Assembly (NCBI GenBank): GCA_963716725.1
Contig: CAVQUB010000005.1
Span: 128,001 to 192,000, forward strand
Source of the DNA: an uncultured delta proteobacterium
Lineage (GTDB): Bacteria > Myxococcota_A > Polyangia > Polyangiales > Polyangiaceae
Direction of reading: 5' to 3'
DNA: 64,000 nt
Positions 8,321 to 22,730 of this stretch are shown in pieces; positions within the stretch are counted from its first letter, which is position 1, and each line of letters begins with the position of its first letter. Under the pieces are notes generated by a model, which worked only from the letters and a program-made list of their open reading frames with translations, searched no databases and had not been told where the DNA came from. The position numbers were made by a program, and so were the translations under genes.

Positions 8321-8530
8321 GGCTTCGCGTAGCCGTTCTTCTTGAAGCAGCGCAGCGCGCGTTCCCCCCCAGTCCTGTCCGTTCAGCGCATGTCGCGGAT
8401 CCGGACGTTGTCACACGTGCGATCCGCGGAAGGGGGGTGGTGCGTTGGCGTCGTTCGACGCCAGCAGCATCGCGGTGAACGCGAACGCCAACGTTCGCAC
8501 CGTCTGCCCATGTCGCATCGTCCACCTCCC
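8321..8530 (-). pseudogene. Internally deleted remnant of a paralog of the M4 peptidase gene at 18353-20609
   Basis: ~8321-8395 aligns with ~19432-19504 and ~8400-8530 aligns with ~20489-20621, including the RBS and signal peptide. Confidence 0.85.
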
Positions 8531-8564
8531 GCGTGCCCGACGCCGTCTCGATCCGCGCCCCACC

Positions 8565-8580
8565 CTACGACGTATAGCTA
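8565..8580 (-). repeat. Displaced Fe-S gene 3' end, copy D, distal part (split by IS630)
   Basis: ctacgacgtatagcta is identical to 20708-20723; continues at 13339. Confidence 0.9.
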
Positions 8581-8609
8581 GTACCTCGACGCAGAGGAGT
8601 TGACCGTTT

Positions 8610-18165: not shown

Positions 18166-18368
18166 TGATGCTGCCCCCATCCGCGCGTCCTCGGCCGCTC
18201 TGCGGCCTCCGGGCGCTCGACTTCCCCCAAAGCCGTGCTCGCAGGCAGCGCGAGCGGCGCGGCGATGAACCGCGTTGCTCGACTCCTCGCGCGGCCTGCT
18301 GCGCGCGGCAGGGGGAAGTGCGCGTCACGCGTGGCGCCGGCCTCTGCTCTCGTCACCGCGCCGGCGGC
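18166..18368. repeat. Conserved hairpin element, copy E1
   Basis: Stem-loop ACTTCCCCC...GGGGGAAGT at 18220-18319. Confidence 0.9.
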
Positions 18369-20609
18369 GTCGACTCGCCGTAGGTGTTGCTGCCCCAGCA
18401 CGCGATCGAGTGGTCGGCCCGGAGCGCGCAGGCGTGGCCGAACCCGACGTCCATTTGAACGAAGCGCCCCGCGGGCGGACGGATCAGCTCTTCGTTCTGG
18501 ACGCCGACGCAAGTGAGGGTACCGTCGAGCTCGATGACGCAGGCGTTGTACCGCCCGCCGGCATGCACGGAGCGGGCGAGGCGGCCGTGGAGGTTGCCGA
18601 AGGATTCCTCGAACCCCCAACACGCGACGACGTTGTCGATGTTGCGGGCGCAGGAGAAATGGCTGCCGCTGGTGATCTGGACGAAGGTGCCGGCCGGGGG
18701 ATTGGCCTGGCCGTTGTAGTTTGCCCCCCAGCACGCGAGCGTGCCGTCGGCGCGGATGGCGCAGGCGTGCATACCGCCCACGGCCACGTCCTGGAACTTG
18801 CCCGGGGGTGGGTCGTCCAGTCCATGGCCCTGGTTGCCCCAGCACGCGAGCGTCCCGTCGAGGCGGACGGCGCAGGCTGTCATCCCCAACGTCGAAACCG
18901 TCGAGTAGTGGCCGGGCGGAAACGCGCCGACGGAGTTCATCTGGGCGGTCGGCCAGCAGCTCAAGGTGCCGTCCCGCTCGAGGCCGCACGCCCGCAACGA
19001 AACATCAGGGTAGCCGGGCGTCAGTTGAGCCGTATCCTCGTTCAGGTAGCTGCCAGCCCAGAACGAGAACGCCGCGTGGGTGCCAAGGTCCTGGTAGCCG
19101 GGGTGCGGCGGGCTGTTGGCGGGGTCGCTCAGCCACTCCTGCTGCATGTCGTTCATGGCCGCCATCGCGAAGCAATCCGAGAGGCCCTCGTAGATCGCCT
19201 TCTCCTCCGTCTTGTCGGCGGGGCGTGGCAAAACGTCTTCCCACAGCGAGTGCCCGAGCTCGTGCGCCAGGACCATCGGATCGGCTGAGGTCTTGAAGCG
19301 CTCGCCGCCAACGCCGACCTGGATGACGCCGTTGTCCGTCCCGAGGGACGTGTTCAGCCTGGTGAACCAGGCCTGCTCCGCGTACCCCCGCTGCCACCCG
19401 ACGTAGCGCACCGGGATGTTGCTGCCCACCCGCTTCGTGTAGCCGTTCTTCTTGAAGTAGCGCAGCGCGCGCTCCCCCCAGTATTGCCCGTTCACCGCGT
19501 GTCGGATCAGGGGGTCGTTGCTGATCCAGGAGTTGTCGGCGTCGCGGAACACGTCAGCCTGATCGAACTTCGGATCGACCAGCGGGCTGTCGCGGAACGT
19601 CACGACATCCTGCGAGCCCACGAGGCGGTCCGGTGTGCCCCACTCGTTGCACGACACCAGGGCCCAGGGGTTCTGCTCTTTCGGGTAGTAGGTCGTCGAG
19701 AATCGGCGGAGGCCCAGATCGGTGTCCAGCCCTTCGCCCTCGTTGTAGAGGCAGAGCCAGAGTGGGATGAGCGCGTTCTGAAACGCCGCTTGCCCCGCGG
19801 TGATGGCCTTCCCGATGGGCTTGGTGGAGCCTGACGACGAGTGCGACGCCAGCTGGATGATCCGACTGATCTGGCCCGACGCGGCATCGACCCACACGTC
19901 CGCGACTTGCTGGGCGACCACGTCGTCGCTCGTGAGGCGCACGGCGTACACGAGCTGATCGTTCCCGCGACGCACCTCGGTGGCTCTGCGGGCGCCGCCG
20001 AACATCGCGGGCTCGCGCACCACCAGGAACGGCGGCGGATACTCGCGGGCGGTGAGCGGGATCGACGAAAGCTCTGGCGCCACCTCGAGCGCGCGCGCCA
20101 CCGCCTCGTCGGGTGCGATCTCTTCCTCGGGTGGCGCGAGATCGGGTTGCGCGGTGCTCACGATCGAGGCGATGGAGATCCCGTCGCCCGCGATGTTCAG
20201 CGCAATGCGCGCGCCGCGCACGAGCGCACCGCGGTGGCGTTGTTCCAGCGCGACGACGCGCCAGTTCGCTTCTCCGGGCAACGCTTCGAGCGTATCGACG
20301 TCGGGCGTGAGCCCGAGCAATGTCAAGACCGCGGGCGACGTCGCCAGATCGATCACGCGCGCTCTTCGCTCGGCGTAAACGCGCCGCGCAATCGCCGCCG
20401 GCATCGGACGCTCACGTGCGCTCGCGAGCCAGAACTTCGCGGTGCGGCTCAGCCCCGGGATCGGGAACGTCCGCTCCCACTCGATGATGCGGACGTTGTC
20501 ACCCGTGCGATCTGCAGGGGGGGGGGGGCAAAGCGTTGGCGTCGTTCGAGGCCAGCAGCATCGCGGTGAGCGCGAACGCCAACGTTCGTACCGTCTGCCC
20601 ATGTCGCAT
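18353..20609 (-). CDS. Secreted M4/thermolysin-like metallopeptidase with C-terminal RCC1-like repeats; signal peptide out of frame at a G12 tract (20517-20528)
   Basis: RBS GGAGGT then MRHGQTVRTLAFALTAMLLA; FTP/PepSY-like propeptide; HELGH plus EGLSD; repeats of AC..R.DGTL.CWG. Confidence 0.8.
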
Positions 20610-20707
20610 CATCCACCTCCCGAGGGCAACGGTACGCGGCGCGATCGGTCCGCGCAATGTGCGCGTTGTCGCACGATGTGGGCCCGCGCGTTCCGAGCGC
20701 GACCACC

Positions 20708-22730
20708 CTACGACGTATAGCTAGTGTTCTCGAGCAGGATCACGTTCGTCCGACTGCGGGTCTCGCCGGCGCTCGTCACGTAGACGGCGGGCTTGTCGAC
20801 GATCGGGCAGACCTTCTCGCAGGCGCCGCAGCCGATGCACAGCGAAGGATCGACGTGCGGGCGTTGCACCTTGATGGTGGTCATCTTGGCGTGACCGCCG
20901 CCCTCCTCGTAGTGCGCCTCGCGCTTCGGGACCTCGACGTCTTCGGCCCAGATCGCCTTGGGTGAGGTCGGGCAGAACTCTTCGCAGACGATGCAGGGCG
21001 TGGCCATGGCCCAGGGCAGGCAGCGCCCTTGGTCGTACATGGCGGTCCCGATGCTGATGGGCTTCTGACCGATGCCCATCTTCTGCTTCTCGTCGATCTT
21101 CTGGATGGCGCCGGTCGGACAGACCTGGCCGCAGAGCACGCAGCTGAACTCGCAGTAGCCGATGCGCGGGATCAGGATCGGCGTCCACAGTCCCTCGAGC
21201 CCGGCCTCGAAGAACGCGGGGTGCAGCGCGTTGTTCGGGCAGACCTTCATGCACTCGGCGCAGCGGATGCAGCGCTCGAGGAAGTCGCGCTCGTCCACCG
21301 AACCCGGCGGACGGATCACCTTCTCGCTGTAGGCCCGGTCGGGCCAGTTGGCGATGCGCATCGCGGGGATGGCCACCGCGCCGGCGGCGGTCGAGGCCAG
21401 GATCGTGCGTCGCTGCAGGTCCGGCTTGACGAGCTCGCTCTTGCGGTTCGGCAGGAACTTGAACTTGATGACGTCTTCGGGGCAGGCGGCCTCGCAGTTG
21501 AAGCACATGAGGCACTCGTCTTGCTGGTGCTTGACGCCGCCTTGCGGGCTGTCGGCGCCTTGGCAGTGCACCAGGCACAGGTTGCAGTCGGTGCACTTCG
21601 AGTGGTCCTTCTCCATGCCGAAGATGGCGAAGCGCGAGAGCACGCCCAAGAACGAGCCGAGCGGGACACAGCGCCCGGCACCAGAAGCGCGGCATGATGC
21701 GGTTCATGAACAAGATCGCGACCAGCGCGAAGACGATGAACCAGGTCTGGTGGAAGTAGGCCTGGTTCGCGGTCCAGACGGTCTGGGCGAAGAAGTCCTG
21801 GGTCGCGTCGCTGGCCGTCTGCACGGCGCGCAGGTTGCTGTCGGCGGCGACGGTGGCGCCGCGGATGCCCAGGTATTGCAGCGCGGGCACGACTCCCAGG
21901 CCGATGGCACGGACCGCGATGCAGATGGGATCGAGCAGCCCACCGATGGCGCTGCCCGCCGCCGCCGCGCCGAGGAAGCCCCACATCAGGTAGAACTTGC
22001 CGCGCTGCCAGCCCTTGGTCTTGTTGGAGTCGACGCGCTTGCTGCCCTTGAGATAGCGACTCGGGAAGATCCAGCCGAAAAAGTGATGCAGGGTGCCGAA
22101 GGGGCAGATCCAACCGCAGAACACGCGACCGAAGAGCAGCGTCAGCGCGACGATCACCAGCGACCACGCCAGGCCGCGGTAGACGGAGTGGGTGGAGAGG
22201 AGCGTCATCGCGGCGACGAAGGGATCCGCCATCAGGAAGGCTTCGACTGGGAGCGGCATCCGGATCGCTTTGTCCGCGCCGGCGGCGAAGCTGCCGCGGA
22301 AGGCCGTCGCGAACAGGAACCAGAAGAAGACGCCGAGGAAGACGATCTGCGAGACGACCCGCGCCTTGGCGAGGAATCGAATCACGCCGCGGGCGGGGAT
22401 GCCCGAGCCCGGCAGCTTGCGCGGGCCGAAGCGGCGCTTCATCCAGCGCCGGAAGCGCGACGGGGGCGGGAGCTTCTTCGGAGCGGGCGGGGAGCCGGCG
22501 CTCGAGCCCCCGGCCGAGCCGTTGCCTGCGCTCGTGGCGGGCGTCGTCGAGTCCGTCGCCGCGCTGGCGTTCACCGCGGACGAGCAGCCACCGCCCTGGG
22601 AACCGCAACCACACTGCTTCGGTGCCGCCGGCGCGGGCACCGCATCGAGCGGCGCTACCTTCCCAGGAGCCCCCAGCCACGGGATCGGGCGGGGCAGATC
22701 GGGCGTTCCGGAGTGGGTGGGTGGGTGCAC
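20708..22730 (-). CDS. Membrane polyferredoxin (NapH/MauN-like fused to NapG/MauM-like); one apparent frameshift at ~21664
   Basis: FCGWICPFG, FWCRALCP|LGSFLG, several CxxCxxCxxxCP motifs, IRPPG; ends SAGETRSRTNVILLENTSYTS. Confidence 0.88.

Follow-up and report, generated by a model that had tools for sequence, protein, structure and literature searches.

A predicted hairpin element marks the joints of tandem gene-tail arrays in Polyangiales

Introduction

Tandem accretion at the 3′ end of a gene has been described for the cis-mobilizable elements (CIMEs) of islands related to ICESt1 and ICESt3, and decayed CIMEs keep their attachment (att) sites after losing their integration genes (PMC5704250). 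Here we examine a comparable array in 64,000 nt of DNA from an uncultured member of the Polyangiales (positions 128,001 to 192,000 of contig CAVQUB010000005.1; this whole stretch is called the window below), in which three units stand one behind another downstream of a gene for a membrane polyferredoxin-type Fe-S protein. The units are separated by displaced copies of the end of that gene, the tail, and on the minus strand each displaced tail is directly preceded by an element of ~175 nt, here named E, that is predicted to fold into a long imperfect hairpin.

As with CIMEs, the units would have integrated in a gene 3′ end together with a copy of that end, later arrivals pushing older ones downstream (PMC5704250). 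CIMEs derive from elements whose tyrosine integrase is known and whose att core is single and fixed (PMC5704250). Here, in contrast, no integrase is linked to the array, and one structured element serves at least four unrelated targets, with a shifting junction and units of 1–3 kb (PMC5704250).

Composite islands of the staphylococcal cassette chromosome (SCC) at rlmH are likewise stacked behind an intact housekeeping gene with gene-end repeats between them (PMC13739063). Some SCC elements have att pairs without ccr genes, and the element farthest from rlmH is taken to be the oldest (PMC13739063). The only recombinase that we found beside E is, as in SCC, a large serine recombinase (PMC13739063). 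SCC has a single target (rlmH), short repeats, terminal inverted repeats and Ccr in the host population, whereas the array family here has repeats of 52–100 nt, several targets and a recombinase that shows no co-occurrence with E (PMC13739063). Set against the SCC definition, our assembly contains no PF00239 match and the target is the Fe-S gene, not rlmH. The tycheposon arrays of Prochlorococcus also show serial integrations, partial target copies between them and remnants deeper in the island, features shared with our locus; they target tRNA genes and use tyrosine recombinases, and a conserved hairpin end is not described in the available part of the report (10.1101/2020.12.28.424599). As these three systems show, the general architecture of our locus is of a known kind, namely accretion at a gene 3′ end with decayed or non-autonomous members. 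What is unusual is one conserved structured end that serves several unrelated target genes, including ftsZ and Rhs.

Orphan toxin–immunity modules behind rhs and cdiA genes, reportedly described by Poole et al. in 2011 and Koskiniemi et al. in 2014, provide another precedent. In such modules the old 3′ end, still attached to part of the conserved core, is left behind when a new end arrives together with the genes downstream of it and takes its place. One of the loci described below, on contig C10, is such a case, with a displaced 3′ fragment that retains a core piece and lies downstream of a full-length rhs gene. We know of no defined non-coding junction element in the rhs/cdiA orphan model; unlike in that model, E also stands at genes other than toxin genes; there the displaced piece amounts to the final 17–33 codons only.

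Integron cassettes are small, promoterless and rich in toxin–antitoxin genes, each ending in an imperfect hairpin with a variable terminal part; the attC motif reads RYYYAAC ... GTTRRRY, and clusters of attC sites lacking an integrase are called CALINs. Our locus is similar in being an array of small, promoterless cassettes with toxin–antitoxin genes and imperfect hairpin ends that vary in their terminal part, and differs in that it has no intI and no attC-type core in E and that each unit repeats the tail of its target gene. An earlier note, made from the letters of the window alone, had called the array integron-like with neither intI nor an attC core; both absences stand, and the comparison with integrons is an analogy only. 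HUH-dependent derivatives, such as the palindrome-associated transposable elements (PATEs) of IS200/IS605 and one-ended products of IS91/ISCR, resemble our locus in having one sharply bounded hairpin end, another end that varies, and products in tandem. In contrast to these, no Y1 or Y2 gene lies consistently beside E, and the junctions show no conserved target tetranucleotide. Full-text word searches of open-access papers returned no paper describing E or this architecture.

Results

Tandem units behind the Fe-S gene

The window belongs to a metagenome-assembled genome (G000; 7.9-Mb assembly, 84% complete, 3.9% contamination) and lies on a contig of 799 kb. In minus-strand order, the target gene, its tails (T), the elements and the DNA beyond them are:

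20708..22730, minus strand: target gene for a membrane polyferredoxin-type Fe-S protein (Pfam: Fer4_5 in the N-terminal part and several Fer4)
20708..20774, minus strand: T1, functional tail of the Fe-S gene, 67 nt (last 21 codons and stop)
18166..18368, minus strand: E2, hairpin element (core ~18166-18340), plus 58 nt of 5′ flank in common with E3, containing the stop codon of the unit 1 gene
18066..18165, minus strand: T2, displaced tail copy (18099-18165), with 8 nt beyond the stop and then 29 nt that recur at 8531-8560
16460..16663, minus strand: E3, hairpin element (core 16460-16640), plus the 58-nt 5′ flank also seen at E2, left over from the 3′ end of the unit 1 gene
16402..16459, minus strand: T3, displaced tail copy (16408-16459), 15 nt shorter on its 5′ side than T2 and T4
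13390..13625, minus strand: E4, hairpin element with a 54-nt dispersed mini-repeat inserted at 13425-13478
13336..13389, minus strand: T4, first part, displaced tail copy interrupted by an IS630 element
8560..8582, minus strand: T4, second part, last codons and stop
8322..8560, minus strand: presumed original downstream DNA, with the 29-nt stretch, a leader and a remnant of a HEXXH/RCC1 gene (residues 1-39 and 376-390)

Copies of the 3′ end of the target gene, as direct repeats, flank each unit. A stretch of 23 nt is identical in all four tails, and the 7.9-Mb assembly contains no further occurrence of the Fe-S tail. E2 and E3 are 93% identical, and E4 matches either at 88–90%. The tail repeats and hairpin elements are located where the earlier note had put them, the last tail split by IS630, and we agree with its description of small units (tail, cargo and structured element), without a recombinase of their own, stacked at the 3′ end of a whole gene.

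One indel, corrected in read contigs, is the only interruption of the Fe-S reading frame. The open frame covers 331 aa here, compared with 585–804 aa in relatives, and contigs of sequencing runs X1 and X5 have 1 nt fewer at 21662, where the frame of the window splits the gene; on these grounds the frameshift near 21662 is probably an assembly indel. At the far end of the array, the 29 nt that follow T4 also follow T2 (90% identity). The remnant after T4 matches residues 1–39 of the unit 1 gene product at 82% and residues 376–390 at 87% (89% nucleotide identity), and a kinase gene (7313-8305) lies beyond it.

The same junction at other genes and in relatives

Searching this genome with a sequence profile of E (E-value <=1e-3) gave 10 matches, of which six are full-length and four partial. 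Behind each of the six full-length copies, and behind one truncated copy, stands a copy of the 3′ portion of an upstream gene in the same orientation. These E-to-tail joints involve the Fe-S gene three times, ftsZ three times (on contig C1 and at the end of contig C2) and an Rhs gene once. The ftsZ array (C1:273572-289900 and C2:477050-477330) contains the native tail, cargo and three E-to-ftsZ-tail joints, at 279 kb of C1, at 284-286 kb of C1 and near the end of C2. Its cargo comprises trypsin-like proteins of 887 aa and 818 aa and a DUF2079 protein, and one of its displaced tails carries a non-synonymous change in the conserved C-terminal peptide. The E copy of the second joint is split by a group II intron (D1-D4 model, 78.9 bits), which sits in the 3′ arm of the long hairpin (C1:284289-286396; the Rfam match lies at 1791-1961 of locus L006).

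At the Rhs locus (C10:9600-18797), an Rhs gene (YD-shell, 1742 aa) comes first, then a DUF559 gene, E and an orphan Rhs fragment that ends in another tip. The fragment matches residues 1505–1579 of the upstream Rhs protein (82.7% over 75 aa), and E lies exactly at the joint. The locus is a classical Rhs orphan module with E at its joint.

The arrangement extends to relatives. A sister species (G002) has an 11.3-kb insert behind a gene of the IgGFc_binding family, with 54-nt tail repeats (94% identity) and E at the far end, and three more of its E copies abut pieces of a multicopy gene from the IgGFc-binding-domain family. On a metagenome contig (L090), an IgGFc-family tail occurs twice, 1.07 kb apart, with a ParE-type cassette and E in between; this cassette and the 11.3-kb insert have only E and ~85 nt before it in common. 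At a locus of a further genome (L044 of G001), a 100-nt tail repeat of 99% identity lies 815 nt upstream of the copy linked to E. The earlier note had described the array at one housekeeping gene and did not recognize it as a known system. The array is not an isolated case and its element is not private to it, as E is found elsewhere in the genome and in relatives, at ftsZ, Rhs and IgGFc-binding-domain genes, and the general architecture is a known one.

Several candidate regularities at the junctions were tried and set aside. A reading-frame rule was suggested by differences of 15, 9–10 and 39 nt, which looked in-frame, and failed at two further joints in the sister species, which differ by 1 nt. 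G(T/A)GAC was considered as a common motif in front of the junction; it stands before both Fe-S junctions and is absent from those of ftsZ and IgGFc. As to a programmable guide, no shared or complementary word of 10 nt or longer links E copies with the Fe-S or ftsZ tail regions, and words of 8–9 nt are as frequent as in cross controls.

Element E and its family

In all aligned copies E starts near CACTTCCCCC and finishes with GGATGGGGGCAG. Its 3′ end is sharp, consisting of ...GGATGGGGGCAG followed by ~5 variable nt, and the sequence beyond differs between loci. Judged by reading the ends, an attC-type inverse core/core pair is not present there. An alignment of 13 copies gives one long imperfect hairpin and two short hairpins; 97.3% of its cells are paired, against 32–48% with slid partners, and seven pairs show compensatory changes, with the qualifications that the structure was derived from the same alignment, that most double changes split two subfamilies and that kindred sequences can outscore shuffles without any structure. 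The fold energy of E2 alone is unexceptional (z = -1.8), so the case for structure rests on the alignment. By this comparison, E appears to be a conserved, structured, low-copy element of Polyangiales.

Rfam 15 returned no match with an E-value up to 1 in six loci with E, apart from the group II intron, and none up to 5 in six loci with a short form of the element, besides tRNAs and chance hits. Scanning viral contigs with the E core gave no match. Scans of genome and metagenome collections with the core gave 4 and 11 loci, respectively; the Fe-S tail follows E in none of them, and no second copy of the Fe-S array was therefore found.

The short form (~110 nt), seen in other Polyangiales, lies a few nucleotides from the 3′ end of a convergent tRNA-Ser gene at three loci (L079, L063 and L052) and abuts the stop codon of a convergent protein gene at two (L077 and L086). 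It may be a resident ancestor of E. In another genus, three E-like copies spaced by 792 and 1688 nt lie on one contig (C103 of G017; loci L047, L061 and L066), with a repeated 3′ flank of 44–160 nt, which may be a further array.

Tail evolution and strain variation

Differences between tails are almost all synonymous: 5 of 5 variable sites among the Fe-S tails, 4 of 5 among the ftsZ tails and 2 of 2 in the sister species. Under random change, 0.25 of the sites would be expected to be synonymous; 5 of 5 would then have a probability of 0.001, and 9 of 10 over the two loci of our genome (Fe-S and ftsZ) would arise by chance at ~3e-5. The tails evolved as coding sequence. Because this pattern is unlike that of dead copies diverging in place, the variants must have arisen while each tail was a working gene end, whether in separate lineages or at separate times.

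The locus was compared across strains, as the earlier note had proposed. Public sequencing runs were available as assembled contigs; X1 is the likely source of the genome, and X7 is an independent metagenome from another study. A 1440-nt contig of X7 joins 18096 to 20706, without the 2609 nt of unit 1. Because 41 nt at this joint can be assigned to either side, it falls within the tail, a position that fits site-specific and homologous recombination alike. The functional tail of the X7 strain carries synonymous variants as in T3 and T4. Relative to the window, the X7 contig differs at 7 of 1250 positions in unit 2 and at 6 of 188, 13 of 353 and 14 of 242 in pieces of the Fe-S gene, and cargo and gene thus have different histories. 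Unit content therefore varies between strains, unit 1 being missing in X7. X7 has no cover over unit 3 (13721-16305), and X6 covers the region in part; we draw no conclusion from either. Two low-depth joints in X6 (18760 to 17217 and 21386 to 16628), with letters in between, were left uninterpreted. In five further species of the genus, the Fe-S gene has a single tail, E is not present next to it, and no downstream genes are shared.

Short-read contigs of X1, X5 and X6 span the borders from tail 3 to cargo 3 (15043-16453), from E3 through cargo 2 to tail 2 (16511-18141), from the Fe-S gene across tail 1 into the leader of unit 1 (20517-21074) and from the remnant through tail 4 to the insertion sequence (8504-8699). 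The joint seen in X7 is absent among the X1 contigs.

Recombinase and transposase genes

The assembly has 19 matches to the tyrosine recombinase family PF00589, none of them on the 799-kb contig of the window, and no intI lies next to the array. A match to the serine recombinase family PF00239 was not found in this 84%-complete assembly. The earlier note's description of the array as integrase-free accordingly holds in this genome and does not extend to the whole family, since in the 11.3-kb insert of the sister species a large serine recombinase of 703 aa ends ~1 kb from E. An IS91-type Y2 transposase gene lies 3.5 kb from E in the same insert. The serine recombinase was considered as the general enzyme of the family and dropped, being unsupported by co-occurrence with E.

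The window itself contains, on the minus strand, an IS200/RAYT-like gene for a Y1 HUH transposase (37517-37960), the only good Y1_Tnp gene, with 66-nt inverted repeats on its two sides (region 37451-38240). Each repeat holds two small hairpins, is found only here in the genome and is unrelated to E. The gene was not found in six genomes of the genus, two of them rich in E. We set it aside as the array enzyme because its repeats are unrelated to E and because it was not found in E-rich genomes of the genus.

The assembly has 17 matches to Y2_Tnp (IS91-type), and two of the four E fragments have one no more than 3 kb away. Around the six full-length copies, up to a distance of 6 kb, we found no Y2, Y1 or reverse transcriptase gene except the intron. 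The large serine recombinase and the IS91-type HUH transposase, each beside E once, are candidate enzymes, and on the distribution of their homologues neither seems to track E across genomes. The search for a recombinase or HUH gene co-occurring with E, which the earlier note had suggested, thus turned up no consistent partner among serine recombinase, Y1 and Y2 genes. At two places without E (C13:110625-113710 and C8:414837-416746), IS91-type Y2 genes are followed by ~1.2-kb tandem repeats, each containing the 3′ part of the Y2 gene (model positions 93-180), that is, repeated gene tails.

Cargo and later insertions

The three cargoes between the tail repeats are mutually unrelated:

18353..20707, minus strand: unit 1 cargo, intergenic leader and a 749-aa secreted HEXXH/RCC1-repeat protein, a full-length diverged copy of the 8322-8560 remnant
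16665..18065, minus strand: unit 2 cargo, open reading frames 17368-17883 and 16703-17410 with a lipoprotein-like signal, no Pfam family
13650..16401, no single strand: unit 3 cargo, with the four Pfam-identified genes below and an unassigned stretch at 13650-14200
16008-16385, plus strand: HigA (HTH_3), unit 3
15743-16036, plus strand: HigB, unit 3
14811-15581, minus strand: AbiEii, unit 3
14200-14865, minus strand: AbiEi, unit 3

The unit 1 protein, which the earlier note had called an M4 peptidase with RCC1 repeats, has RCC1 repeats and a weak PepSY match in Pfam and a HELGH motif in its translation; no Pfam Peptidase_M4 model matches it, and we retain only the repeats and the motif from that assignment. 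The two open reading frames of unit 2 are probably parts of a single gene, since an extra nucleotide follows 17509 in read contigs. Here and at 21662, short-read contigs from several runs differ from the window by one base, and these differences look like assembly indel errors. In unit 3, Pfam matches to HigB, HigA, AbiEii and AbiEi bear out the earlier assignment of HigBA and AbiE. Its G+C content is 0.621, compared with 0.678 for the genome; the composition is foreign.

Two elements have entered T4, one inside the other:

8578..13339, no strand assigned: IS630-family element (DDE_3, HTH) in T4, inverted ends 8578-8616 and 13301-13339
9406..12663, no strand assigned: 3.26-kb multicopy element inside the IS630 element, with rve/Mu-transposase C and AAA_22 (TniB-like) genes by Pfam

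Contig depth in run X1 is ~46 over the 3.26-kb element and ~5 over its flanks, about ninefold, so many copies of it are present. A transposase related to that of this element ends contig C1, right after the ftsZ array. The 54-nt mini-repeat of E4 has 14 copies in the genome at an E-value <=1e-3 and 35 at 0.1, several of them within a few kb of IS91-type Y2 transposase genes.

Discussion

We read the array as a tandem accretion of non-autonomous integrative cassettes that end in E, an interpretation to which we give about an even chance. Three small mobile cassettes would have inserted successively just inside the 3′ end of the Fe-S gene, each bringing a replacement for the last 52–67 nt of the gene, a cargo and, at its far end, the ~175-nt E. 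Because the cassette carries a replacement tail, the target gene would stay whole, and because E is at the far end, it would abut the old tail pushed downstream; the unit adjoining the Fe-S gene would then be the youngest. More broadly, E would be the hallmark end of elements lodged, in matching orientation, in the 3′ ends of Fe-S, ftsZ, Rhs and IgGFc-binding-domain genes, and the recombinase-less majority would be non-autonomous derivatives. Insertion could proceed through an enzyme acting in trans or through a crossover in the shared tail, with later reshuffling by homologous recombination between tails. The foreign composition of unit 3, together with its toxin–antitoxin and Abi cargo, counts in favor of this reading. 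The layout, the wider family of loci, the paired positions of E, the synonymous pattern in the tails and the strain without unit 1 are observed; that the units moved as cassettes, in which order they arrived and by which enzyme are points that we infer from them.

Several observations weigh against accretion of this kind. The junction between E and tail falls at two positions in the Fe-S gene (15 nt apart) and at two in ftsZ (9–10 nt apart), and the junction sequences have no motif in common across target genes; variable position and missing motif together make a poor fit to a classical site-specific recombinase, against which the service of E to at least four unrelated genes also counts. Homologues of the serine recombinase of the sister species (E-value <=1e-20) occur in 8 of the 41 genomes searched, neither of the E-rich genomes G000 and G005 among them, and the other homologues in these 41 genomes have no E nearby. 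The assembled contigs of the read data contain no circular or excised form. E may be a resident non-coding gene rather than a mobile end, because its short forms abut the 3′ ends of convergent tRNA-Ser and protein genes. Finally, remnants of a single gene context are common to units 1 and 2 (29 nt following the tail and the final 17 nt of the unit 1 gene), and unit 1 runs colinear with what is presumed to be the original downstream DNA; a resident segment that was duplicated and then had its content replaced could equally explain both.

An account built on this last point would make E passive: a resident structured element, such as a small RNA gene or a terminator, would lie downstream of a variable region, rare tandem duplications (by template switching at the hairpin, for example) would have created the E-to-tail joint, and homologous recombination with the alleles of other strains would have swapped the content and number of units, all without a dedicated recombinase. 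The flank relics common to units 1 and 2, 29 nt after the tail and 58 nt before E including the stop of the unit 1 gene, would be expected from such a history, as would the repetition in unit 1 of the presumed original order of tail, leader and peptidase gene. The same 5-nt linker follows E at all three Fe-S junctions, so these junctions would go back to one joint or two; the X7 joint falls within the tail repeat, where homologous recombination would place it; short forms of E occupy conserved places beside tRNA-Ser in several genera; and no recombinase tracks E. We nevertheless consider this account unlikely, for E-to-tail joints have formed independently at no fewer than four unrelated genes, at several positions and always co-oriented, and the 3′ end of E is always precise to ~6 nt, where random template switching predicts otherwise. 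Displaced tails are also consistently short (~50–100 nt) rather than of any length, the three cargoes are unrelated with unit 3 of foreign G+C, and the 11.3-kb insert of the sister species, with its recombinase and tail repeats, resembles an integrated element. A capture process centered on E and indifferent to the target would instead place the cis-acting site at the 3′ end of E, which would fix one end of the mobilized segment, either as the nick or termination point of HUH rolling-circle replication or as the 3′ end of a transcript copied back into DNA; homology in the upstream gene would set the other end, and any gene upstream of E could stack cassettes. One precise end and one variable end in the target, across at least four gene families, are what such a process would leave, and E is a long imperfect hairpin with compensatory changes. 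IS91-type Y2 genes are abundant in our genome (17 matches), lie no more than 3 kb from two of four E fragments and in the sister species 3.5 kb from E, and a group II intron with a reverse transcriptase region interrupts one E copy. Against this stand the six full-length copies of our genome, all without Y2, Y1 or reverse transcriptase within 6 kb, the intron aside, the inconsistent orientation and distance of Y2 genes relative to E, and the lack of complementarity of 10 nt or more between E and its targets. We therefore think this mechanism quite unlikely in the specific form given here. The plainer proposal, that E is the cis site of an undescribed capture system without a target-specific att, in which homology with the upstream co-oriented gene fixes the other end, is unlikely to a slightly lesser degree; defence, toxin and other cassettes, and new Rhs tips, could then pile up behind essential genes such as ftsZ and leave these unbroken, and such capture would be an integron-like function reached by a different, possibly HUH-, RNA- or homology-based, route.

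It is also conceivable that an assembler concatenated alternative strain haplotypes of a variable region. The genome is metagenome-assembled (84% complete, 3.9% contamination) with single-base indel errors, and a strain with other unit content exists in nature (X7). Each E-to-tail joint, however, has its own sequence (the 15-nt difference, the 54-nt insert), which argues that the joints are real molecules. Independent contigs of X1, X5 and X6 cover the borders of tails, cargo and E, the X1 contigs lack the X7 joint, and the same architecture recurs at other loci and in other genomes, all of which makes an artefact very improbable. The earlier note had named such a mis-assembly as what would overturn its proposal, and the border contigs and distinct joints argue against such a mis-assembly.

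The arrangement of E at displaced tails concerns more than a single array, and the variant with mostly recombinase-less units of 1–3 kb is not described in the literature searched. A single non-coding element at the joints would provide a sequence handle for finding such islands, and possibly the enzyme. Displaced tails are fossils of earlier alleles and would help to date successive acquisitions, and E at the joint offers a concrete, testable model for the origin of orphan toxin modules. If the mechanism is independent of target sequence, it would be a natural way to add DNA at the end of a gene without disrupting it. If E cassettes are mobile, they would give Polyangiales a compact and so far unnoticed route for stacking toxin–antitoxin, abortive-infection, secreted-protease and Rhs-tip genes behind intact core genes, ftsZ among them.

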